A stretch of 28,044 nucleotides of DNA from contig CBDDTI010000077.1 in NCBI GenBank assembly GCA_965233585.1, positions 1 through 28,044 of the forward strand, given 5' to 3'. The translations under genes and the position numbers were made by a program. A model generated the notes under the pieces. The model did not search any database. It was not told the DNA's origin and saw nothing but the letters and a program-made list of their open reading frames with translations. Below, in pieces: positions 2,501-26,462 of the stretch; position 1 is the first letter of the stretch; the number at the start of each line of letters is the position of its first letter. The stretch is from a bacterium. GTDB lineage: Bacteria; SAR324; NAC60-12.

Positions 2501-3039
2501 GGGTAATGTCCCTACATCACTCTCATTCGAGCTTGTTACGCTCTCAAAACACCTTAAAACGTTCTCAAAACACCTTAAAACAGGCTGAAACCGTCTTTCA
2601 ACCATCCGTTTACCGATAAAAACCATCTTGATGCGCTCTCAAAACACCTTCCTGGCATCTACATTGAGCCTGTTTCAACCTGAAATCGGCTTGTAATCGT
2701 CTGCAACCGGCTTGTTTTCGTCTGCAATCGGCTTGCAACAACCTCAATCGAGCCTGCAACCGGCTTGTTTTCGTCTGCAATCGGCTTGCAACAACCTCAA
2801 TCGAGCCTGTAATCGGCTTGTTTTCGTCTGCAATCGGCTTGCAACAGGCTCAATCGAGCCTGTAATCGGCTTGTTTTCGTCTGCAATCGGCTTGCAACAG
2901 GCTCAATCGAGCCTGTAATCGGCTTGTTTTCGTCTGCAATCGGCCTGTTGCAAGCCGATTGCAAGCCGTTTGCAACCTCAATTTTTTCACTTTCCACGTC
3001 TTGAATCAGTTCGGGGGCGCGAAGAAAGGTTCTGAGAAC
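2501..3039 (+). repeat. Left terminal inverted repeat
   Basis: Reverse complement of 24810-25350 with only a few mismatches/indels; contains a 53 bp tandem array. Confidence 0.96.
2705..2945. repeat. 53 bp tandem repeat array inside the left TIR (about 4.5 copies; mirrored at ~24905-25146)
   Basis: Unit AATCGGCTTGTTTTCGTCTGCAATCGGCTTGCAACAGGCTCAATCGAGCCTGT begins at 2811, 2864, 2917, with variant copies upstream. Confidence 0.92.
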
Positions 3040-7409: not shown

Positions 7410-8237
7410 ATGTCTAATTCACCAAATGATTCAAACAACCCTCGCCAAGTTTTTCTTGGCCCTGCAGGGTTAAGAATAAGATTTCATCTAAGAAACGCTG
7501 ATGATTTAACATCACCGCCATCTCCGCCGGTTGTGCCAATTGGACGAGGTCGAGGAGATTTAAGGTCAAATGATGGCCCAAGTTCCTCTCTTCCTGCTCG
7601 CGGTGTTGGTCGAGGCCAGACAACATCTTCCTCGTTTAATCAACGGGGTCGAGTATCTGAACCGATAGTTGTAAACCCCGAAGGATTTGGAGTTATGGTT
7701 CAAATCAATAACAATCCAGTCGATGATTTAACATCGACCAATAACTCCGCCGATGATTTAACATCGCCATCATCAAACAACGCTGTCGATGATTCAACAT
7801 CGAACCCCATGTCTCAAAGAATTTTTGCTGAGCGCAACACCTCAAACACTTCGGTCGTTGGTCGTGGTGTTGGTCGGGGACAAAATATTTATCGCCCCTT
7901 CAATCAAACGACTTCACCCTCGATTGGGCGAGAGGTCAGACGTGGTGTTGGTAGGGCCGGAAGATATTCTTCTCCTTATCAACGTCCAAATCGATCAGCA
8001 GAAGAAATAGAAGAGGAAAATTATTTCCCCGCACCCTCAAATTTAGAAAGATCGAGTGACGGTCGTTTAGCCTCTTTCATTCTCGATTTAATCGATGCTG
8101 AAGGCGGCTCACCTTATGATTTGTTCAATCGTTATGCTGAGTACGTATTGCGTCAACGCATTCAAATGCTTGAGCGTGAACGCGAACGCTTACGTGCTCA
8201 ATATCAAAGATTGTTGCGTCATTTTAGACAAGAATGA
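7410..8237 (+). CDS. Disordered RG-repeat protein with C-terminal coiled coil (275 aa)
   Basis: Long ATG ORF with repeated RGVGR(G/A) and DDLTS motifs; C-terminal LRQRIQMLERERERLRAQYQRLL. Confidence 0.75.
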   Translation: MSNSPNDSNNPRQVFLGPAGLRIRFHLRNADDLTSPPSPPVVPIGRGRGDLRSNDGPSSSLPARGVGRGQTTSSSFNQRGRVSEPIVVNPEGFGVMVQINNNPVDDLTSTNNSADDLTSPSSNNAVDDSTSNPMSQRIFAERNTSNTSVVGRGVGRGQNIYRPFNQTTSPSIGREVRRGVGRAGRYSSPYQRPNRSAEEIEEENYFPAPSNLERSSDGRLASFILDLIDAEGGSPYDLFNRYAEYVLRQRIQMLERERERLRAQYQRLLRHFRQE

Positions 8238-8352: not shown

Positions 8353-9108
8353 ATGCCAAAATCCTACGTCTGCCGTGAATGTCAAAAATCGTTTGCTAGA
8401 AAATCTTCCCGAGACAAACATGAATCGTTTCGTCATCGTGAAACATCGTCAAAATTCCAAAATCGGACTCCGTTAAATCAATCGCTTCAGTGTCCGTTTT
8501 GTAAGAATGAATTAAGTTCCTTTAAATCAAGAAAAGATTTGGTTTCTCACATTGATTCCTCTCATTTAGAAGATTTAAATTATTCTCTTTTTAAATCTGC
8601 TTTGAACGGTAAAATTAAAATTTTTCGGAAACATATATTTTCTACAGAAACGCTTCACGCCTTTGTTGTTAATAGAGCAAATAGACAAGAAATTGTTGAT
8701 GTTATTCGTCATGAATTGAGTAAAACCTTTACAGTAAAAGTTGCTTTAATTTTATCAGCGGCGTATCAAATTCCTGATTTAAATTCAGCTACAAAAGACA
8801 CTGAGACGGAAACCGCTGTTGATAATACTTCAACACAGCCTCAAACGGTTGTTAGCAACATTGATAATTCAACTGAAAAAAGTCTTGATCAGTCGTCACA
8901 TGAATTAATGCCTAGCGATCGAGATGTCTTTGCTTTAAGAACCGGCTATATTCAATTTACGTCTTTTGATTCTTCTCGCTCGTTAAAAGGTAAAGTTCAA
9001 AAATTATTAAACAATTTAATAAGTCGAGAAGAGGATTTGTTGATGAGAGGTTCCGGATGGAGATTTGAATCTCTGTCTTTTAGTGACATCCAAATTACCA
9101 ATATTTGA
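8353..9108 (+). CDS. C2H2 zinc-finger protein carrying the terminal-protein-like region normally at the N-terminus of Maverick pPolB
   Basis: Fingers CRECQKSFARKSSRDKHESFRH and CPFC...LVSHIDSSH; C-terminal RGSGWRFESL...IQI matches the GSGW motif of the pPolB N-terminal region. Confidence 0.75.
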   Translation: MPKSYVCRECQKSFARKSSRDKHESFRHRETSSKFQNRTPLNQSLQCPFCKNELSSFKSRKDLVSHIDSSHLEDLNYSLFKSALNGKIKIFRKHIFSTETLHAFVVNRANRQEIVDVIRHELSKTFTVKVALILSAAYQIPDLNSATKDTETETAVDNTSTQPQTVVSNIDNSTEKSLDQSSHELMPSDRDVFALRTGYIQFTSFDSSRSLKGKVQKLLNNLISREEDLLMRGSGWRFESLSFSDIQITNI

Positions 9109-9158
9109 TTTAAAGGACTTATTTTGTTGTATATAAAAAATTCAAGTAAGCTTTGGAA

Positions 9159-12100
9159 ATGGATTTTATAGAAATTCCGCGAAATTTAAAAAGATCTAAC
9201 TGCTTGGAATGGAATACTCGATATGATAAATTCAACTTTCTTTATCTGTACATTAGACATCTTTTTCCAGAAACTGCTTCCATTACAGATTTTCGTCAAA
9301 TGCCAGTAAAATATCTTAAAAAATTTAACATAAAAGGTTTTACGTTTCCTCTTCAATTTTGTGACATAAAAAAATTTTTGTATAGAAATCGTCATTTACC
9401 AATTTCAATTTCCGTACTTTATGAGAGTGAAGGCCACGTTTCAAAGTTAGGGTTTATTACTAACAAAAACAACGATAGGAGAGAAAATACTCTCCATTTG
9501 TTAATGATAAAACACGATCCTAAAATCTCTTCCGATAAAATTTCTAGTAATTCCCGCCCCAAAAAATCGAGTTTTCCTTCCAAGTTTCCTAAAAAAATCA
9601 AAGATTTAAATCAACAGCATCATTTCTTTAAAATTACAAAACTCCAAGGTTTTTTGAATAATCGGGCCGGACTGTTGTCGTTTAACAAAGCGGGTCAACA
9701 GAAGTACATTCACTGTGAAAAATGTCTGCTGCGTTTCCGATCAAAATCCAAGAAAGAAAAGCATGAGCGGATTTGCTACGATAAGCAACGCACCATTTAT
9801 CCCGGCAAAAATGCTGCTATAAGTTTTTCTAACCACAAACATAAGTTTAAAGCGCCTGTTGTGGGATTTTGTGATTTTGAAAGTGTACTTCAAAGAAACA
9901 AGGAACGATCTAAATGTCGACTTTGTTCTAAATTGGAATGCTTATGTGCTTTTCCCACAAGTGACGATATAAATGTGCATAGACCGGTAGGCTACAGCCT
10001 GATTTTTGTGGACTCCGAAAATGAAGTATTTTTTCAAGAAGAATATTTAGGAGAGGATGCGGCTAAACGTTTTTTGGATCGGATACCTCTCTACGAAAAA
10101 GTTGTTGAAGAAAGAAAACAAAAATTTAGAGATGTTCTCAAAACTCAAGCCACCCAGGAGGAATGGCAAATGTTTCGAAAAGCAACCGTTTGTCACATAT
10201 GCGGTCTTCGATTTGCTACCCATCCTAAAAAGTATAGAAAGGTTTTGGATCACGATCATGTCACAGGAAAAATAATGGGTGCGGCTCATTCGCTGTGCAA
10301 TTTGACAAGATCCGGACCCTATCATACGCCAATTTTTTTTCACAACGCTCAAGGGTAAAATTTTTTATTTATTTTATTTTTTCCAATCAATTTTACAAAT
10401 TAAACGTTTCAGATACGATTTGCATCTGATCATAGAAGAGTTAAACATTCGCCGATTCAAGAGAATGCCGGAAGTCTTGGCTAGAAACAGCGAGAAATTC
10501 CGCACTCTTACATTAGGCAGATTCAAAATTCAGGATTCATTAGAGCACATATCTGCCAGCTTAGACGCTCTTGTCCAAGATTTAAATCAAACTTCAAACT
10601 TTTCTTTCCCTATTTTACAACAGATGGAAAGATTCAAAAAAATTCCTATCCGTCAAAAATCAAAAGCTTTTAAACTTTTAAAAAGAAAAGGCATTTTTTG
10701 TTACGAGCATTTTCAATCATTACAAGAAATGAAAAAGAGTCGAAACCTTCCAACCAAAGATGCTTTTTATTCTGAATTAAATGAAGAACACATCTCAGAA
10801 ACGGATTATTCTCATGCGCAAGAAGTCTTCAAACTGTTCAAGTGCAAGAATGTGGCGGATTACATGATGCTTTATTGTTCTTTGGATGTTATCCTGCTAT
10901 GTGAAGCGTTTCTTCAATACCGAAAAATGGTTATGGAACATTTTCAATTGGATCCAATCTATTACTTAGGTAAATTTCTTTTCTGTTGCTTGTCATATAA
11001 AGTTTAAATATGAAATTTATTTCGTTTAATTTAGGAATTCCTGGACTAAGTTTTGATGTTATGCTTATGTTCTATCAAAACTCTGAACGAGCTACAACAA
11101 CAAAAGATAACCTCGCGGGTGAATCTTCCAAACCTCTAGGATCTCTGGATATCTATTCCGATCCTGAAATGGAGCACTTTTTCACAAAGGGTATCAGAGG
11201 CGGACAAAGCTTTATCTCTCAACGTTATGCAAAAGGAAACAGCAATCCGAGAAAAAGTGGCGATCATTTACTTTACATTGACGGTAATTTTATACTGCAT
11301 CGTTTGATTAATCTATTTATTTTAAATCGGTGACTTTTTAGCAAACAACTTGTACGGGAGCATGGAAACTTTAAAATTGCCAGTTTCTAATTTCGAGTGG
11401 GTTGCAAAAAAAGATCTTGAAAAATGGACTGCCAAAGATATTATCAAGATTCCTTCTCAAGACGAGACCGGCTACGCATTTGAAGTTGATTTGCATTATC
11501 CTCCTCATCTTCACCCGGTAAATCTGATCTTTTTAACACGTTTTGCATTTTGATAAACGGTAAAATATTTACAGACACATGATCAATTTCCGCTGGCTCC
11601 GTATACAGACACGGTTTCTTACAAACATCTGTCTCCTTATAATCGTCGTTTACTAAAACATCTTAACCCTCGAGATTATAAGAACAAAAGATACCGAAGC
11701 AAGAAACTGTTGAGCACTTTTTATGATCGAAAAAAGTACGTGGTGCATCTGGAAAATCTACAATATTATTTGAAAAAAGGCATGAAACTGTTGAGGATAA
11801 GAAGAGCCGTGAAGTTTCGGCAAAAAGCTTTTTTAAAAGAGTTTATTGAAAAGGTCACGATGCTACGATCAAACGCTCGCAACGATTTTGAACTTCGGCT
11901 TTTTAAGCTTTTTGCCAACTCTACTTTTGGAAAGTTTATCGGTAAGTAAATACTCAGATTTAAGATCTTTTTTGTATTTTTATATTTGCACAAGCGTGTG
12001 GTGGTACTGCCAATATTTAGTGCAAAATGTATTGGCAGTACACACCACACGCTCATCCGCATCTTCAATGTCGTTGTCGGGGGGCGCGTGAATCTCAGCC

Positions 12101-14086
12101 TCCACGGTGATGACCTCCCCGTCAAAATCCGCCATCCGGTTTTCCGCCGCCCGGATTTTGGCCAGACGGACAATCTCCGTTGCCCGACGTCTGGCGGCAA
12201 AAGATCTGTCGTCAGCGGGGATTCTGATGGGGATGGGGGCCTCGATGGGGTTGTCAGCGGGAATCTCGATGGGAAACTCGATAAACGCCTCGGTGGGCGC
12301 CTCGGTGGGGACGTTGGAGGAAATTTCGTTGGTGGGGGCCTCGATGAGCATCTCGATGGGGGACTCGGTGGGAGCTTCGATGAGCGCCTCGGTGGGGACG
12401 GGGACCTCAATTAGCACCTCGGTGGGGATGTTGGAGGAAATTTCGTTGGTGGGGGCCTCGATGAGCATTTCGATGGGGGATTCGGTGGGAGCTTCGATAA
12501 GCGCCTCGGTGAGAACGTTAGAGGGAATTTCGGTGGTGGGGACCTCGATGAGCATTTCGATGAGGGATTCGGTGGGAGCTTCGATAAGCGCCTCGGTGGG
12601 AACGTTAGAGGGAATTTCGGTGGTGGGGACCTCGATGAGCATTTCGATGGGGGATTCGGTGGGAGCTTCGATAAGCGCCTCGGTGGGAACGTTAGAGGGA
12701 ATTTCGGCGGTGGGGACCTCGATGAGCGTCTCGATGGGGGACTCTGTGGGGACGTTGGTGGGGAGATCGACAAGAATGTCGGTGGGGACGTCAAATTCAA
12801 TAAAATTTTCGTTTTGAAGGCCTCGGACAGCGCGACCGCTGCCGCCACCGCCAGCGCCAGCGTCGCTGCCCTCTCTGTTGACGGCAAGCACAGCAACGCC
12901 AACAGAGAGGGCAACGGCAGCGGCGCTGGCGGTGGCGGAGGCGGCAGCAGACGGCGGAGCATCAAAAATGTCGGCCACGGCCGACCGGATCCGCCGGATC
13001 AGGCCCGGTTTCCGGTTCTTTTTCTCCTCCTTCTCCCCCTTCAGCAGCCACTGCTCATCGTCATCCTCCTCATCCTTCAACCTCATATATTCCCTCTTCA
13101 TCTTCATCATCATCATCATCATCACTGTCCTCTTTCTTCTTTTTTGTTGTGAAAGTTTGTTTTGAAAATTGCCACATGGTTTTAGGAAGTTTTTAAAAAA
13201 TAAATCTCCAAACTCCTACACACTTTATAATGAATTTTTATATAAAATGTTGTATTCTTTATAAAATATTTATTTAATTTTATATTTTTCAGAAAATGTT
13301 CGAAATTACATCGAAGTGGTCCTTTGTGGAGATGAAAAAAGTCTGAGGAAAGCCAGTCTTGGTCAACACATCAACAATTTTCAAATCATTAATGAGAATT
13401 TGGTGGCTGTCAACAAGAAGCCGGCAATGATAGAACTTAGAAAGCCTTTAGCCGTCGGATTTTCCATTCTAGAGTTGTCCAAGTTGTTTATGTACAGATC
13501 ATACTATGACACCATTCAAAAACATTTTGGCAAAAACAATGTATCTTTGTGTTTTTCGGACACGGATTCTTTTCTTTTAAAAGTAAAATGCAACAATTTG
13601 GAAAGGGAAATGGAGAGATTGAAACACATGTTTGATTTTTCAAAGTACCCTAAAGAACATCCACTTTTTGACGACAGTAAAGCCAATCAACTTTTTTATT
13701 TCAAAGATGAATTAAAAGGTAGAGCGGCTATTACTGATTTTATAGGCTTACGTCCAAAATGTTATTCTATGAAAATAGTTGATTTTTTGGACAAAAACAA
13801 AATTGATGAGAAAAAAGTATGCAAAGGTTTAAAAAAATCTAGCATAAAAAAGCAATTAACTTATGCAGATTACAAAAAGTGCTTAAAACAAACTGTTGTA
13901 ATTTACAAATCTTTTAAAAATTTAAGATCAAAGAATCACAAAATCCGAACGTGTTTTCAAAGAAAAATTGCGTTGTCGGCAATGGATTCAAAAAGATATG
14001 TTTTAAATTGTGGATGTCACACTTTATCGCTAGGAAATTGCCTTATTGTTAACAACAAAATGTCTAAATGCCGAATTTGTAAATAA
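9159..14086 (+). CDS. polB: Protein-primed family B DNA polymerase, 1112 aa; exons 9159-10354, 10413-10969, 11035-11283, 11342-11517, 11575-11941, 13293-14086
   Basis: Splicing five GT-AG introns restores ExoII HNAQGYD, PGLSFD, motif A YIDANNLYG, HDQFPLAP and motif B KLFANSTFGKFIENVR. ExoI CDFES, ExoIII YCSLDV, motif C SDTDS and an Endo VII/HNH-like insert (CHIC...DHDHVTG...AHSLCN) are also present. Confidence 0.95.
11980..13122 (-). CDS. Nested antisense gene in polB intron 5: putative type II membrane protein with acidic Pro/Thr/Glu repeat stalk (start Met uncertain)
   Basis: About 380-codon ORF filling most of the 1351 bp intron. Hydrophobic AAAVALSVGVAVLAV segment, 29 aa repeats, TATA-like TATATAAAAA on the minus strand near 13235-13244. 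Confidence 0.65.
   Translation of the reverse strand: MMMMMMKMKREYMRLKDEEDDDEQWLLKGEKEEKKNRKPGLIRRIRSAVADIFDAPPSAAASATASAAAVALSVGVAVLAVNREGSDAGAGGGGSGRAVRGLQNENFIEFDVPTDILVDLPTNVPTESPIETLIEVPTAEIPSNVPTEALIEAPTESPIEMLIEVPTTEIPSNVPTEALIEAPTESLIEMLIEVPTTEIPSNVLTEALIEAPTESPIEMLIEAPTNEISSNIPTEVLIEVPVPTEALIEAPTESPIEMLIEAPTNEISSNVPTEAPTEAFIEFPIEIPADNPIEAPIPIRIPADDRSFAARRRATEIVRLAKIRAAENRMADFDGEVITVEAEIHAPPDNDIEDADERVVCTANTFCTKYWQYHHTLVQI
12270..12790. repeat. 87 bp tandem repeat (29 aa unit PTEALIEAPTESPIEMLIEVPTTEIPSNV on the minus strand)
   Basis: CCTCGATGAGC(A/G)T recurs at ~12456, 12543, 12630 and 12717, with degenerate copies on each side. Confidence 0.9.
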
Positions 14087-16612: not shown

Positions 16613-17956
16613 TTAATTTGTTCCTTTTATAACTTGTTGGAATTGATCTATTTTGATGCCGGAGTTGAAAACAGAAAAAGCCAGAACGTATATAGGATGA
16701 GGAGTTATTACGGAAAAAGCCAATTCTAAATCTAAATTTCCGTAATTTTCTGGATGCACGTGGAACGAATTACATTGATCCGGTGTTAAATCGGCCGCTA
16801 GAAAAAATCTTCCTTTTAAATATTGTTCATACGTTAAACCGATGGATTGATTGCCGTGCGAAATGCCAATACTGTCGTATAAATGCCGATACAAGTCAAT
16901 GGCATCCCCCTCGTTTATATTAGGTTGAAATGGTCTGGGAAATACGCATTGACCGTTCTTTTTTAAATTAAAAGTAGACAGATTAAAATGTTGAAAGTTG
17001 AAAGGGTTTTTGTCCGGGGCGTGTGACATGGCTTGATTGTGAACCATCACAAAAAACACTTGTTTCGGTAAAGTACCATTAGCGATATTAGCGATGTTGA
17101 AGGACGACACACCTTGAGGAATAACATAATGTCTTAAACGTGTAGCGCTAAAAGGTAGGTAGCACGGTTCTTTTAAAAGTTTGTTTTTAAAACTTTCTCG
17201 CAGCAATAATGTGGGCAACACTTTTCTCATATGTAGTTTAACATCTTTTAAAACAATTTTAAAAGGTTTTTCTGCCGCAGCATCTTGAAGCAAACCAAAC
17301 TTTTCAGCGGATCTAACCAGCTTGATTTTGATATCCACATTTGGGGGTAAAAATCTGTCGGTGTCAAACAGATCAACGGCTAAGCGCGTATTAAAATACA
17401 CTTTTTTACCGTCCATAATTAACTGCTTTCTTTTATTCAAAGAAGGTGTGGCGGCTGTAAGATTTATGGTATCAACTTCGTCAGCATTTTCGGGATAATA
17501 CCCTTCAGCAGCCAGATAAGTTTTTTTCACCTCTGAATTGTAACTTAAAAATGATTGTATGAACATTCTCCAAGGATAAGTGACCGCTGAACTTAAATCA
17601 GCTACTTGGACCCCGTTTAAATATACTTCTACTTGGCTGAATAAACAAGCGGCAAAATGATTAGCCAGTGTGACTTTAGTATCATTTTTTACCTGTTCGC
17701 CATCGTCATTTGTCACTACAAAATAGCCGCTAAGTCTGGTTTGATTCAGTATAAAAGAGCATTCGTTATCGCGAGGAACAAGAAATTCGACCGGTCCGGT
17801 ATTGGTGATAGAAGCCACGCTATTGTAAATAACGTGAGCTCCATCTAATAAACCCGTTTCTACTTCTAACGGTGAGTGAAGCGCTAAACCACTTTCGGTG
17901 CCGTCGTTTTGTTCAACGGCCAATCCGGCAATTCCACTTTTTTCAGGTACGCCCAT
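16613..17956 (-). CDS. Major capsid protein (double jelly-roll, Maverick PY), 447 aa
   Basis: GPVEF, LFSQVEVYLNG, RFLPPNVDIKIKLVR, LPKQVFFVMV, NPFNFQHFNL, YRHLY and DLTPD motifs. Likely start is MGVPEK at 17956; the upstream extension overlaps the TBP-like gene. Confidence 0.92.
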   Translation of the reverse strand: MGVPEKSGIAGLAVEQNDGTESGLALHSPLEVETGLLDGAHVIYNSVASITNTGPVEFLVPRDNECSFILNQTRLSGYFVVTNDDGEQVKNDTKVTLANHFAACLFSQVEVYLNGVQVADLSSAVTYPWRMFIQSFLSYNSEVKKTYLAAEGYYPENADEVDTINLTAATPSLNKRKQLIMDGKKVYFNTRLAVDLFDTDRFLPPNVDIKIKLVRSAEKFGLLQDAAAEKPFKIVLKDVKLHMRKVLPTLLLRESFKNKLLKEPCYLPFSATRLRHYVIPQGVSSFNIANIANGTLPKQVFFVMVHNQAMSHAPDKNPFNFQHFNLSTFNLKKNGQCVFPRPFQPNINEGDAIDLYRHLYDSIGISHGNQSIGLTYEQYLKGRFFLAADLTPDQCNSFHVHPENYGNLDLELAFSVITPHPIYVLAFSVFNSGIKIDQFQQVIKGTN

Positions 17957-17962
17957 AACAAA

Positions 17963-18505
17963 ATGGAAGTGTTGGTCAGCAATGTAAAAATTAGTTGTAA
18001 AGTTCATCTTATCAACAGCGACGAAATCTCTTTTAATACTGATAATACAATAAAACGTTATAATAATTTTGTTGTAATAAGAAAAAAATATTCCTTTATT
18101 ATATTTACCAAAACAAAGCAAAATCGTCATTTTCACGTAAACATTACAAAAATCCCCTCTACAGAACACATTGCGAAAGCATTAGACGAACTAAAATTTA
18201 TTATAAGTAACGAATTTGTTGTTGAAATATTTAAAGTAGAAAACATGACTTGTTTGTATCAATCAAAAGAAGAGATTAAATTATTAAAATTATACAACCA
18301 TTTAAAATCGAATAAAGATTTTGAAATTATTCTTAAGAGATATGATCCAGAAAAATTCCCAGGCGTATTTTTAAAAATAAAAAAATGTTCAGCTTTAATA
18401 TTTTCGTCAGGAAAAATAGTTATAATTGGAGCCTCCAGCGAAGAAGATGCTAAACAAGGAATAAAAATTATTATTAAATTATTAAAAAAATATAAAATTG
18501 AATGA
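17963..18505 (+). CDS. TBP: TATA-binding-protein-like factor (180 aa)
   Basis: Two-repeat architecture: VSNVK...NNFVVIR...FIIF and VENMT...YDPEKFPGVFLK...ALIFSSGKIVIIGA. Confidence 0.9.
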   Translation: MEVLVSNVKISCKVHLINSDEISFNTDNTIKRYNNFVVIRKKYSFIIFTKTKQNRHFHVNITKIPSTEHIAKALDELKFIISNEFVVEIFKVENMTCLYQSKEEIKLLKLYNHLKSNKDFEIILKRYDPEKFPGVFLKIKKCSALIFSSGKIVIIGASSEEDAKQGIKIIIKLLKKYKIE

Positions 18506-18561: not shown

Positions 18562-19320
18562 ATGCACGAGAAAGTAGATTATACTAAAATATGCAATCAT
18601 CAATATCCAGTAGAAGACACCAGGCAAGGAGACGTGGTGTGTACCGAGTGTGGATTAGTTATTGATAAAATATATTGTCATAATTTAACAAAATCAAATT
18701 TGGAAACAGAATGGGACAAAATAAAAACATTTGATAAAGAAATTAAACAAAAAAACCAGCATTTAGAGAAAGAAAAAAATATTTTAAAAATTTTATGTAA
18801 TAAATTACATTTAAATAATGATGTTACAAATGTTATTTTAAATCTATGGTCGGATATAGCAGCGTGGCATTATCAAAAAGGCGGAAAAATTAAAATGGAT
18901 GTTAAAGGATTGGTGGTAATGACGTTGTATCAGGGGTTAATAAAAGAAAAAATTCCCCGCCCGATAAGTCATTTGTGTCAAGAAGTCGGCATTAATCCAA
19001 AGATAGTGTGGCGTTGGATGAAATTATACAGACGGGATTTGACTGACATGAATAAATTAGACAATTACATAAAGGCAAAAGATATGAAAGAATATTTTTT
19101 ACAGCCGCTGCAGTTAAATTATCAAGAAATGACGTCCGTTGAACAAATATTAAAAAAAAATGAAAATAGTTCTTTTGCTCCAAGAACTTTATTAGCTGCA
19201 TGCGCTTATGCCTTTTTAAAAGAATCCAAATTGAGGTATTTAAGCGTCAAAAATATGGCTCACATTTTAGGCGTCAGTGTTATGTCGTTGTACAGATGTC
19301 GTAAAAGTCTAAATCAATAA
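18562..19320 (+). CDS. TFIIB: TFIIB-like transcription initiation factor (252 aa)
   Basis: Zn ribbon CNH...VEDTRQGDVVCTECGLVID. Two cyclin-like repeats (LCNKLHL...TLYQGLIKEKIPR; APRTLLAACAY...VKNMAHILGVSVMSL). Confidence 0.9.
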   Translation: MHEKVDYTKICNHQYPVEDTRQGDVVCTECGLVIDKIYCHNLTKSNLETEWDKIKTFDKEIKQKNQHLEKEKNILKILCNKLHLNNDVTNVILNLWSDIAAWHYQKGGKIKMDVKGLVVMTLYQGLIKEKIPRPISHLCQEVGINPKIVWRWMKLYRRDLTDMNKLDNYIKAKDMKEYFLQPLQLNYQEMTSVEQILKKNENSSFAPRTLLAACAYAFLKESKLRYLSVKNMAHILGVSVMSLYRCRKSLNQ

Positions 19321-20826: not shown

Positions 20827-22566
20827 ATGGATTATAATATTTATTGCGTGTCAAACGCTAGTTCCGATACGGATGACAAAAATACTTTAAATTCTTTTAC
20901 CAATTTATTTCCACAAAGTTTAGACTTGAAAAATAGAGAATGGGAAATTGGGGTAGTGTCTATTGGATTACATTACAACTACAACCAATTGACTTTGTCA
21001 AAAGGCCAACCTTGTTTCATCACGCTAAAAAACGAATTAACATCTATACATTCTTCGGAAGAAGACATAAGGTCCGAAATTTTAGACCAGACAAAATCCA
21101 TTTGGGTTTTGCCTAATTTAGATGAAGAGGATTTGACAGTGCATAGACTGATGCAAAATTTGATGCAATATATTTACAAGGAAGGAATGAGATTGTATAA
21201 TTTTGAACCCAAATCAGGGGGTAAAGATGAAAAAGCTTACGTAATAGATGAAAACCCGAAAAAAGAAATGGAAAATGAAAATTACAATTATAATAGATAT
21301 TTTTTAATACATAAACATTTTATAAAAATTTTAAATTTAAAATACTACCAAAACGGTTTTGTATCCTCCCAAGCAAAATCAATCAAGTTTTTTGACAACG
21401 AATATGTGTATTTTTCTGTAAAGAAAAATTTTGCGCTTTTAACTACAGCAATTAAAGCGTATTCCGTTTTAAAACCCGGTCTGGTTCAAATAAAATCAAA
21501 TATTATTTCTGACGTTCCCAGCGGAAATAGTTATTCCACAATTATGTTTACAACGACTTTGCCAAATCAAATGGAAGGTCATTATTTTTACCATAATGTA
21601 AAAAATATTAGATATTATCAAGTGCGACAATCTAATATTGAAACGATAAACACTCAATTTATAGATTCTTTTGGGAATCTTTTAAGTTTAAACGAAGGTC
21701 AGCCGTCTATAGTGCATTTTCATTTAAAAGAAAAAGATAAAAATATGGATTACGAATTAACGCACGTACGAATCGATTCACAAGTAGATACCAAATTGAA
21801 CTACGAAAATACAAATAGTAGTTTTTGGGCACACTTAAAACATCCGATAAGTTTGAATCAAAACGCGAAAATAGCCTTGATGGATATATCTTTTCCCAAC
21901 ACCATATGTAGCATTCCAGAATCAATTGGAAGGAATCCGTTTATCTTTAATGTGTTGATGAACCAAAACGAAACAAAAAAACACGTCGTGGAAATACCAA
22001 ACCTTTATTTCTGCAACTCTGATGATCTAACAACATCAATAAACCGTCTGTTATCCGAAGAACTAAAGGAAATTTTACATTTTGAGAACTTTAATGGATT
22101 CTTTAGGATTGTGGCTAAAACAGATAAACCTTTTTCAATAAGCATTCCCAAAAACTTTTGCCCGTTTTTAGGAATGTACGATTACTCGGAGAAAGAATTT
22201 GCAAGAATTGAGGAACGAGGTGATTACGTCACGCTTGCAGTGACTAAGGAAAGATTTTTTGAAGCGCCAAAACCAATGGATGTTTACAAATTATATCCCG
22301 GTGTTATGATATGTTATGCAAATTTTGTTCAACATTCCATTATTGGAGACAAATTTTACCCAATATTTAGAGTTATACCAACAATCGGTCAATCCACACA
22401 AAATGACTACTGTTCTATCCATTTCGAACATTTAGAATTTATAAGATGCAATGTTGATTATTTAGACGACATAAAGATCGAACTCAGGAGATTAGACGGA
22501 AATTTGATTGAATTTAACGACGATCGAAGAGTAATTTTAAACATTGTAATTAAAAATCCAATTTAA
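20827..22566 (+). CDS. Minor capsid (penton-like) protein made of two tandem units (579 aa)
   Basis: Unit 1 (aa 1-306): SNAS...NTLNSFTN...WEIGVVSI...DSFGNLL. Unit 2 (from 21745): NTNSSFW.HL..PISL...IALMDISFP...SIIGD...FRVIP...IKIELRRLDGNLI. Confidence 0.85.
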   Translation: MDYNIYCVSNASSDTDDKNTLNSFTNLFPQSLDLKNREWEIGVVSIGLHYNYNQLTLSKGQPCFITLKNELTSIHSSEEDIRSEILDQTKSIWVLPNLDEEDLTVHRLMQNLMQYIYKEGMRLYNFEPKSGGKDEKAYVIDENPKKEMENENYNYNRYFLIHKHFIKILNLKYYQNGFVSSQAKSIKFFDNEYVYFSVKKNFALLTTAIKAYSVLKPGLVQIKSNIISDVPSGNSYSTIMFTTTLPNQMEGHYFYHNVKNIRYYQVRQSNIETINTQFIDSFGNLLSLNEGQPSIVHFHLKEKDKNMDYELTHVRIDSQVDTKLNYENTNSSFWAHLKHPISLNQNAKIALMDISFPNTICSIPESIGRNPFIFNVLMNQNETKKHVVEIPNLYFCNSDDLTTSINRLLSEELKEILHFENFNGFFRIVAKTDKPFSISIPKNFCPFLGMYDYSEKEFARIEERGDYVTLAVTKERFFEAPKPMDVYKLYPGVMICYANFVQHSIIGDKFYPIFRVIPTIGQSTQNDYCSIHFEHLEFIRCNVDYLDDIKIELRRLDGNLIEFNDDRRVILNIVIKNPI

Positions 22567-24809: not shown

Positions 24810-25350
24810 GTTCTCAGAACCTTTCTTCGCGCCCCCGAACTGATTCAAAACGTGGAAAGTGGGGAAAAATTGAGGTTGCAAACGGCTTGCAATCGGCTTG
24901 CAACAGGCCGATTGCAGACGAAAACAAGCCGATTACAGGCTCGATTGAGCCTGTTGCAAGCCGATTGCAGACGAAAACAAGCCGATTACAGGCTCGATTG
25001 AGCCTGTTGCAAGCCGATTGCAGACGAAAACAAGCCGATTACAGGCTCGATTGAGGTTGTTGCAAGCCGATTGCAGACGAAAACAAGCCGATTGCAGGCT
25101 CGATTGAGGTTGTTGCAAGCCGATTGCAGACGAAAACAAGCCGGTTGCAGACGATTACAAGCCGATTTCAGGTTGAAACAGGCTCAATGTAGATGCCATC
25201 AAGGTGTTTTGAGAGCGCATCAAGATGGTTTTTATCGGTAAACGGATGGTTGAAAGACGGTTTCAGCCTGTTTTAAGGTGTTTTGAGAACGTTTTAAGGT
25301 GTTTTGAGAGCGTAACAAGCTCGAATGAGAGTGATGTAGGGACATTACCC
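24810..25350 (-). repeat. Right terminal inverted repeat
   Basis: Reverse complement of 2501-3039. Confidence 0.96.
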
Positions 25351-26462
25351 TTCCCCCGTGGGCGATCTCGTGGGACTTCAGGTTTCCCACTAGCCGTTTC
25401 CGGTTCCCCAACCGATGCACTATCACCTGACTGTTGACCTCGCTCTGCCTCTTTTCCACCAGCCCCTCCATAGCCCGAGCGATGGCATCCTCTCTTCGAA
25501 CTGCACTGAGACTGCCGCCCCCTTTCCGGCGAAGGTGTCAGAGTTCGAGCCCTGCTTGCACTAACCCCCGGTAAACGATCTTCCTGTTCTCGATCCCTCT
25601 TAGGCCCACGCTTTTTCCCTTTCAGGACTGGCATGTCCCACCGTATGAATGGGGGACCCTGGTGACGTCCACCCGCCTGTCTGTGGGCCTCCTCTTTCCA
25701 AAGCCCTAAGAAATCCCGCCGTCGAGGAGGCGGAGAGGCTGTCTGATGATTGCAAATCTCCCTGTCTGAGGTCTTCAGACGAGCAAACTTCTTGCGGTCA
25801 CGATCCATATCATCCGGATCCAATCCTATCCTGTCGTTCACTCTCCTAATCTTTTCTAAAGCGAACGGTTTGAGGATCGAGGTCCTTAAGGAATCCGGTA
25901 CCTGCTGCATTGACACATGTTCCGGAATCACATGCTCACTTCCAATCAAAGTCACAAAACTGAGAGATTCCTCCCAGTGAGCCCAATCTCTAATCTCCTT
26001 GGGTCTTCTCTTGAGGATCAACTGATCGTGGTATTCAGGCACATCGTAAATATACGGACACTTACATATTCACCCTAATGGTTCTGAAACCGCCTGTTCC
26101 AGGTGACTCCATCTTACCACCTTGCGTCTCTCCAGCAACCTTGAGCTCCTCATGGCCCCCTCTCCGGATCCATCATCCTCCGTTTCGGTTCCATCTATGC
26201 GAAGGTTCCCGATGACCAGCAACTCTGGAGGCTCCAACAATCCCTCATGTTCGGCCGCAACTACTAGACTTCCCAGCTTGTCTAACGCCCCCATCTCTTC
26301 TGGATCTAAAGACGGCACAATTCCATCCAATGACATGAAGGCCATCCAGTTGGAAAGAGCAAACACTAACCGGGCCTGTTCCGGTGTTACCTTTTCTCCC
26401 GTCTTTGCTGCTTGCGCCGTGTTCCACCCGTAGGTTACATTGCCCCTAAATGGCGCAATCAA
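25351..26462 (-). pseudogene. Disrupted ~370-codon host-side ORF (possibly retroelement ORF1), truncated by the Maverick
   Basis: ORFs 26462-26070 and 26042-25351 share a frame and are separated by one TGA; GC-richer than surroundings; no recognised domain. Confidence 0.4.

Follow-up and report, generated by a model that had tools for sequence, protein, structure and literature searches.

The DNA analyzed here (the window) is contig C77 in full, 28,044 bases of assembly GCA_965233585.1, and carries an integrated Maverick/Polinton of 22.8 kb at positions 2501-25350. The replication module of this element probably underwent gene fission: a terminal protein (TP) that relatives carry fused to their protein-primed B-family DNA polymerase (pPolB) was freed as a gene of its own, open reading frame 1 (ORF1), and an inactivated vOTU domain was kept on the polymerase, at the head of ORF2. 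Adenoviridae likewise have their pTP in a gene of its own, and their polymerase retains an inactivated vOTU at its N-terminus (Krupovic, Kuhn, Fischer, Koonin, PNAS 2024, PMC11161782). What the window shows is an adenovirus-like arrangement, not membership in Adenoviridae.

A stand-alone terminal-protein gene

The original prediction had a GSGW-containing ORF stop at 9108 and the polymerase restart in another frame at the ATG at 9159, and both boundaries stand; the ORF2 frame is closed by a TAA at 9147-9149, 9 nucleotides (nt) upstream of that ATG. The arrangement is shared by sibling elements. There are 38 full-length copies of ORF1 in the host assembly, all intact (210-253 amino acids, aa) and falling into at least five families with identity to the window ORF1 down to ~24%, and 37 of them are followed 2-79 nt downstream by an ATG-started ORF2 with the same homologous start; the split is thus far beyond chance. 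ORF1 ends in a stop and the head of ORF2 has an invariant ATG in all families. Outside the assembly, 26 protein clusters are homologous to ORF2 exon 1, all with the same start point, and ~13 full-length stand-alone homologues of ORF1 (210-325 aa) were found. A pseudogene was considered and rejected: all 38 copies are intact, and the ratio of nonsynonymous to synonymous substitution rates (dN/dS) of ORF1, 0.105-0.196 in seven pairs with an eighth saturated, shows purifying selection.

Near-identical copies differ in the frame relation of the two ORFs (spacers of 2/3, 18/20, 49/50 and 52/53 nt), which speaks against read-through or frameshifting as a conserved route to a fusion and is expected for separate cistrons. 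In three copies (C382, C608 and C593, with spacers of 3 and 18 nt) the ORFs are in frame across a single stop. Splicing was assessed in nine representatives by collecting every in-frame GT..AG pair whose donor falls within 75 nt of the ORF1 end and whose acceptor lies no more than 45 nt into ORF2. None of the 38 such pairs has a donor or acceptor resembling those of the gene's four clear introns (donors GTAAAA, GTAAAT and GTAAGT; acceptors TTTCAG, TTTAG and TTACAG), in agreement with the earlier claim that no convincing intron bridges the gap. The only candidate donor near the window ORF1 stop, GTGACA, reads GC in siblings, and one family (C58, C193 and relatives; TAAAAATG / TAATAATG) has a spacer of 2 nt, which leaves no room for an intron that would spare conserved coding sequence. 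The same junction sequence occurs on contigs of four DNA-like public runs (for example as pieces 8885-9254, 9043-9178 and 9034-9165). These contigs pass unspliced through a known pPolB intron and are therefore DNA; they have no joint at 9080-9170. None of the public runs listed for this sequence was an RNA run.

A TATA box proposed ahead of ORF2, TATATAAA at 9130-9137, did not survive as a promoter. Its three matches in the window compare with 2.02 expected, a number reached in 37 of 100 shuffles, and of the 11 closest copies 7 have it; the other families lack it.

The AlphaFold model of the TP domain, built on a 60-row alignment, has a mean predicted local distance difference test score (pLDDT) of 83.1, mostly above 90 within the domain. 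Two strands come first, then a helix, a third strand, a disordered acidic loop (145-188), a fourth strand, a second helix, the RGSGW loop and a last strand (strands 88-97, 127-140, 189-196 and 237-250, plus 78-83; helices 101-122 and 208-231). The little-finger/PAD-like fold of terminal proteins is defined by two helices and a sheet of four strands, to which another strand is sometimes added (PMC11161782). Compared with 48,161 solved chains, the model had Y-family DNA polymerases, over their little fingers, as 10 of its 12 best matches (Z 8.3-6.2). Among these was the Escherichia coli Pol IV entry 4IR1 (Z 8.1, root-mean-square deviation 2.6 over 95 residues), which also appears in Fig. 4 of Krupovic et al. 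2024 (PMC11161782); a little-finger match is reported there for PRD1-like terminal proteins and for the D1 domain of polinton polymerases. As modeled, then, ORF1 has the little-finger fold of PRD1-like terminal proteins. Matches among viral models included the N-termini of bidna-like and MELD-virus polymerases (probability 0.91-1.0; 0.98-1.0 for the bidna-like "densovirus" polymerases).

Profile comparison likewise identifies ORF1 as homologous to the N-terminal part of fused pPolBs. The finger-less ORF1 domain matched a profile of 40 fused pPolB sequences at 93.2% probability in hhalign (E 3e-7), over 136 collinear columns at fused positions 72-208; against a single fused sequence, P0028, the probability was 28.9%, and BLASTP of ORF1 against P0028 gave E 2e-6. 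Searches of PDB sequences returned zinc-finger proteins alone (alignment A6) and one chance match (alignment A3, the finger-less domain), and the ESM Atlas gave no usable match. A profile search with full-length ORF1 returned 11,380 matches, mostly multi-zinc-finger proteins; among the top 150, the whole profile was covered only by short stand-alone proteins. A word-based search found no longer proteins with the finger-less ORF1 domain, and the fused family was reached instead through a search with the ORF2 domain, by way of P0028.

In PRD1-like terminal proteins the DNA-linking Ser or Tyr comes after helix 2, in the loop that leads to the last strand, beside a Gly or Pro (PMC11161782, section 6). 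The RGSGW loop of ORF1 occupies this place in the model, all 60 aligned rows have G233 and S234, and Gly-Ser is also present in all 108 aligned fused proteins described below. An invariant Gly-Ser in the expected loop points to Ser234 as the predicted priming residue. The Cys and His columns of the two N-terminal C2H2 fingers are invariant or nearly so across the 60 sequences. The fingers credited to the freed TP by the original prediction are thus present, but they are not special to it, since fused relatives have them as well.

The OTU-like domain and its fused relatives

The six segments from which a vOTU-like N-terminus of the polymerase had been proposed (FIEIPRNLK, YDKFNFLY, GFTFP, IKKF, ISISV and HHFFKI) are all present in the ORF2 translation. 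The model of ORF2 residues 1-180, from a 72-row alignment, has a pLDDT of 85.6. It matched 36 of the 48,161 solved chains at Z of at least 2, and ranks 1-31 are OTU-type (best Z 5.8, root-mean-square deviation 3.8 over 106 residues). OTU or OTUB is named in the titles of 26 of the 36, and eight further matches belong to what we take to be OTU-type proteins: DUBA, A20, VCPIP1, Ceg23, 3VON, the tymovirus and marafivirus proteases and PRRSV PLP2. The Foldseek list for the PDB was also led by OTUs, but at E values of 0.39 or more. In hhalign the ORF2 N-domain matched P0028 at 98.4% (E 1e-14).

In vOTUs the catalytic Cys lies at the start of helix 1 and the His in strand 4 (PMC11161782). The alignment column of this Cys reads DEKC or DxKC in fused forms versus DKFN or DEKN in split forms, which places Asn26 of ORF2 at the catalytic position, consistent with the inactivation that had been proposed. 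Asn stands there in all 38 host copies and in 34 of 35 aligned ORF2 rows (nine host representatives and the 26 outside clusters); the 35th row, P0008, is gapped in the alignment and reads YNEKNFLY. The His is kept in 33 of the 35, the other two (one Lys and one gap) probably being alignment slips; the window has two adjacent His codons, for His154 and His155, at 9618-9623. No Cys is conserved through the split clade: a second helix Cys (NFLYC) is Leu in the window family, and another family has Ser for Cys15. Siblings in the host assembly all have the stop, the ATG and the loss of the Cys in common, a check that the original prediction had named as able to refute it. With dN/dS of 0.105-0.408 over the first 170 ORF2 codons in seven pairs (an eighth was saturated), the vOTU domain is under purifying selection.

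The fused state is represented by P0028, a single protein of 822 aa in which two fingers are followed by a TP-like region containing GSNW, a linker, DEKCFLY, NHFLLI and the polymerase. Its first 360 residues, used as a query, matched 113 proteins, of which 108 were aligned and the five weakest omitted; two of the omitted five, P0288 and P0290, also read DEKCF. Catalytic Cys and His are both present in 108 of the 108 aligned relatives. Their identity to the window ORF1 and ORF2 N-domain is 16-31%. A 560-aa protein of a Drosophila-associated adintovirus matches both the TP and the vOTU models (E 5.3e-8 and 5.9e-4) and is therefore a fused form.

These relatives also locate the break. Fused proteins have (R/K)-P-(I/L/V)-x-x-G after the last strand of the TP, with the Gly in 108 of 108 and the Pro in 97 of 108, and then by a variable linker, 22-68 residues from the invariant Gly to the catalytic Cys. 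The window ORF1 ends one column before this RP..G segment, and ORF2 begins directly after it. Since its Gly-rich end after Arg resembles the C-terminus of ubiquitin that OTUs cut, the segment is likely the self-cleavage site. We know of no polinton in which the cleavage site has been mapped. Krupovic et al. 2024 (PMC11161782) place cleavage between TP and vOTU and give nothing finer.

Classical fused polinton polymerases with an intact Cys occur in the same assembly (C304, C492, C315 and C657). The classical polintons of this genome have P(L/T)R(G/A)(G/S) directly before (Y/F)I(P/E)L(P/A), a motif that the start of ORF2, MDFIEIP, matches by eye. The classical polymerases of C304 and C492 have a SAP-like N-terminus, and the C493 copy has an internal stop.

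A quick IQ-TREE analysis (LG+G4) used an alignment of 88 rows and 467 columns that begins with the vOTU and extends to where exon 1 ends, after omission of every second fused protein, of P0004 and P0007 (same clusters as the window families) and of C98 (truncated exon). The 32 split rows form one clade (support of 100 in the Shimodaira-Hasegawa-like approximate likelihood ratio test) on a long stem of 1.16 changes per column. Its sister group consists of the 54 fused rows (99), and the outgroup of two distant fused proteins bearing the Cys. The simplest reading of this topology would be that a fused ancestor with an active protease underwent a single fission and a single change from Cys to Asn. 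The independence of this fission from adenovirids, part of the original prediction, is inferred, the tree being one of split and fused forms without an adenovirus sequence.

How the split could work, and what else could explain it

In the fused relatives, one polypeptide comprises two zinc fingers, TP, vOTU protease and pPolB, with the protease thought to release the TP. In the window the fingers and TP form a separate gene, and the polymerase gene begins, with an ATG of its own, at the first residues of the protease domain. Because the break falls at the RP..G segment of the fused forms, the two gene products may mimic the two former cleavage products. Self-cleavage would then be unnecessary, and the protease carries Asn in place of its catalytic Cys. 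The free ORF1 protein would bind the polymerase and present Ser234 for the first nucleotide at the ends of the element. A structural role is presumed for the dead OTU domain because it is under purifying selection; it may dock the free TP on the polymerase, a role suggested for the dead vOTU of adenovirids (Krupovic et al. 2024, PMC11161782). A complex prediction for ORF1 residues 76-251 with ORF2 residues 1-180 scored 0.00 and gives no verdict. ORF2 could be expressed from an internal promoter, from a bicistronic message or by trans-splicing.

Alternatively, a single TP-vOTU-pPolB protein may still be made, through an unrecognised intron, stop read-through, frameshifting or transcript slippage, so that the split exists in the DNA only. 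There are several real introns in the same gene, three copies are in frame across one stop, and a T6A5 run lies at the junction of the family with the 2-nt spacer. We nevertheless consider such a protein quite unlikely. The frame relation shifts between near-identical copies, the ORF2 frame is closed just upstream of an invariant ATG, every family has the ORF1 stop, and neither the GT..AG pairs nor the GTGACA donor that siblings lack offer gene-like splice signals. At the 2-nt spacer, moreover, an intron would have to remove conserved coding sequence, and the loss of the catalytic Cys suits a protein without need for cutting. The active site bears on another alternative as well, in which the OTU-like domain is still a protease or deubiquitinase that uses a different nucleophile, for example against host defence. 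The domain retains His155 and its fold and evolves under selection, and viral OTUs can be deubiquitinases (Krupovic et al. 2024, section 8, PMC11161782), but with no Cys conserved through the split clade, and Asn rather than Ser or Thr conserved at the nucleophile position, we regard continued activity as very improbable.

ORF1, for its part, may no longer be a primer. Its two C2H2 fingers and a little-finger fold that is itself DNA-binding would also fit a DNA-binding or regulatory protein, with priming done otherwise, and priming is not known to have been demonstrated biochemically in any polinton. Fused relatives bear the same fingers on the polymerase itself, however, and the priming-loop Gly-Ser is invariant in split and fused forms alike. 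Given in addition that ORF1 lies directly upstream of the polymerase in every copy and that its TP domain is under purifying selection, a purely regulatory ORF1 seems quite unlikely.

Fission with inactivation of the vOTU thus remains the favored explanation, and several points weigh against it. Splicing and other fusion routes are excluded only by arguments from sequence, the public contigs being DNA, and a 2-nt spacer is a difficulty for the expression of ORF2 in a eukaryote. The ORF1 profile search was swamped by zinc-finger proteins and may have overlooked distant fused or split forms. The OTU matches have middling Z scores, 5.8 at best, and no Foldseek match had an E below 0.39; we make the assignment because nearly all listed matches are OTUs and because of the homology to relatives with an intact active site. 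That Asn26 occupies the catalytic Cys position is suggested by alignment and by its place at the start of a helix. The tree is a quick one under LG+G4, with long outgroup branches, the Cys column kept (1 of 467) and every second fused protein used. Finally, the association of Cys or Asn with the fused or split state amounts to one evolutionary event, not 140 independent observations, and draws its weight from repeating the pattern described for adenovirids.

The element and its place among protein-primed replicators

The features of the element that bear on the split are collected in Table 1. The terminal inverted repeats (TIRs), an rve integrase with chromodomain (Pfam), weak matches below cut-off to an FtsK/A32-like ATPase and an adenain-like protease (Peptidase_C5), and the protein-primed B-family polymerase fit the gene set of a Maverick/Polinton, which also includes capsid genes. 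The polymerase was recognised through relatives that match PF03175: the exon at 10420-11004 aligns to residues 574-756 of P0197 (E 2e-34), within the PF03175 match of that protein. The presumed capsid genes have no Pfam match and are named by position alone, and Pfam likewise gave no match for the ORF at 20827-22566 or the later polymerase exons. No clear target-site duplication stands beside the exact TIR ends, where the flanks read ...CCCCCATTGC (2491-2500) and TTCCCCCGTG... (25351-25360).

Table 1. Positions of the features discussed, numbered along the window.
Feature	Position	Strand	Details
Left terminal inverted repeat of the Maverick/Polinton	2501..3039	.	98.7% inverted match to 24810-25350; outer end exact at 2501
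ORF1, stand-alone terminal-protein gene, 251 aa	8353..9108	+	TGA stop at 9106-9108
Two C2H2-type zinc fingers, ORF1 residues 1-75	8353..8577	+	Pfam zf-C2H2 and zf-Di19 matches weak, below cut-off
TP (little-finger/PAD-like) domain, ORF1 residues 76-251	8578..9105	+	Model, structure matches, hhalign
Ser234 of GSGW, predicted DNA-linking (priming) residue	9052..9054	+	RGSGW residues 232-236, between helix 208-231 and strand 237-250
Spacer from ORF1 stop to ORF2 ATG, 50 nt	9109..9158	+	2-79 nt across copies; frame relation not conserved
pPolB exon 1: pseudo-vOTU, C2H2/endonuclease-VII-like zinc motifs, start of exonuclease domain	9159..10354	+	Donor G/GTAAAA at 10355
Inactivated vOTU-like domain, ORF2 residues 1-165	9159..9653	+	Model and solved-chain matches
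Asn26 at the catalytic Cys position, start of helix 26-35	9234..9236	+	Codon AAC; same alignment column as Cys
His155, retained catalytic-His position, strand 153-159	9621..9623	+	Invariant in 72-row alignment
First pPolB intron (GTAAAA...TTTCAG)	10355..10412	+	Reference for host splice signals
Remaining pPolB exons and introns	10413..14086	+	Large intron at about 11941-13292
Right terminal inverted repeat	24810..25350	.	Outer end exact at 25350; TIRs ~540 bp

The assembly contains ~10 other copies of the element at 92-100% identity and ~15 at about 82%. Because the polymerase gene has spliceosomal introns, the host is a eukaryote with short introns, and we treated the element as an animal provirus. 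Although deposited as a prokaryote genome, the assembly (12 Mb, 747 contigs) has many small contigs with intron-bearing eukaryotic elements, and the fused relative P0194 carries the source name "Nanoarchaeota archaeon DNA polymerase"; both look like mis-binned eukaryotic virus-like DNA.

Further features of the element lie outside the split. Exon 1 has an endonuclease VII-like zinc motif at 10152-10307 (ORF2 residues 332-383; PF02945, E 1.1e-5, above cut-off) that is also found in fused relatives. The largest pPolB intron, at 11941-13292, holds a repeat-containing block of ~60% GC in which both strands have long open frames, among them a minus-strand frame of 411 aa (11980-13215) with repeated PTEALIEAPTES-like units; the 82% family differs here in sequence and length. 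Directly upstream of ORF1, an ORF of 275 aa at 7410-8237 combines RG/GRG repeats with repeated DDLTS units and has no family match. Two adjacent genes resemble basal transcription factors: a TBP-like gene at 17909-18505 (PF00352, E 5.9e-19, above cut-off) and, at 18562-19320, a gene with a TFIIB zinc ribbon (PF08271, 28.8 bits against a cut-off of 29). The stretch is represented in ~24 sibling copies. It would be unusual for a Maverick to encode both TBP and TFIIB.

In adenoviruses, as in the window, the TP gene precedes the polymerase gene with respect to transcription. Adenovirids also share with the window a stand-alone TP of PRD1-like little-finger fold and an OTU-fold domain retained on the polymerase without its catalytic residue; the only trace of a link to them was a weak fold match to an adenovirus polymerase (E 0.16). 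Unlike an adenovirid, the element is integrated and has TIRs and an rve integrase with chromodomain, its TP lacks a large helical insertion and begins with two C2H2 fingers, and in its vOTU the Cys alone is replaced, the His being kept.

The adintovirus-like fused pPolBs (P0028, P0179-P0285 and Drosophila-associated adintovirus 2, A0A7D4VFN9) have the same domains, order and fingers as the window, and share with it the GS(N/G)W loop, the DxK(C/N)FLY helix, the HF strand, the endonuclease-VII-like motif and the exonuclease motifs. They differ in having one open frame, a linker with an invariant Gly and both Cys and His, where the window has a stop, a spacer, an ATG and Asn. Classical polinton pPolBs (of the Caenorhabditis briggsae Polinton-1 type) run from TP through (Y/F)I(P/E)L(P/A) and D..CF to HY, a layout that FIEIP...DKFNF...HHFF of the window repeats by eye; unlike the window they are fused, keep the Cys and have P(L/T)R(G/A)(G/S) directly before YIxLP. 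Tectivirus PRD1 has a stand-alone TP of the same fold but, unlike the window, no vOTU, and Bidnaviridae share the inactivated vOTU, though their TP is still fused. Among the systems compared, a split TP and a dead vOTU are combined only in adenovirids and the window clade. We found no report in the literature of a polinton with a stand-alone TP, the supplementary polymerase tables of Krupovic et al. 2024 aside.

A bolder version of the fission account would have a whole clade of animal Mavericks reach the adenovirus state independently, or precede it. The break would show where the vOTU naturally cuts, behind the invariant Gly of (R/K)P(I/L)xxG or at P(L/T)R(G/A)(G/S) before YIxLP, and in its boldest form the clade would be the nearest integrated relative of the adenovirus replication module. 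We give this version little chance. If the boldest form is true, the adenovirus arrangement arose within chromosomal elements, before the loss of the integrase.

The vOTU of polinton polymerases has been proposed to cut off the TP, and its decay in adenoviruses has been tied to their separate TP gene; the catalytic vOTU residues are stated to be conserved in polintons (Krupovic et al. 2024, PMC11161782). The split clade shows that this conservation is not universal. The adenovirus argument rested on one lineage, and the split clade adds a second case of a split TP with a lost Cys, one whose close fused, Cys-bearing relatives occur in the data set used here, some of them in the host genome itself. 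It thereby strengthens the hypothesis for vOTU function and suggests a candidate cleavage site, and it makes matched natural fused and split proteins available for direct biochemical comparison.

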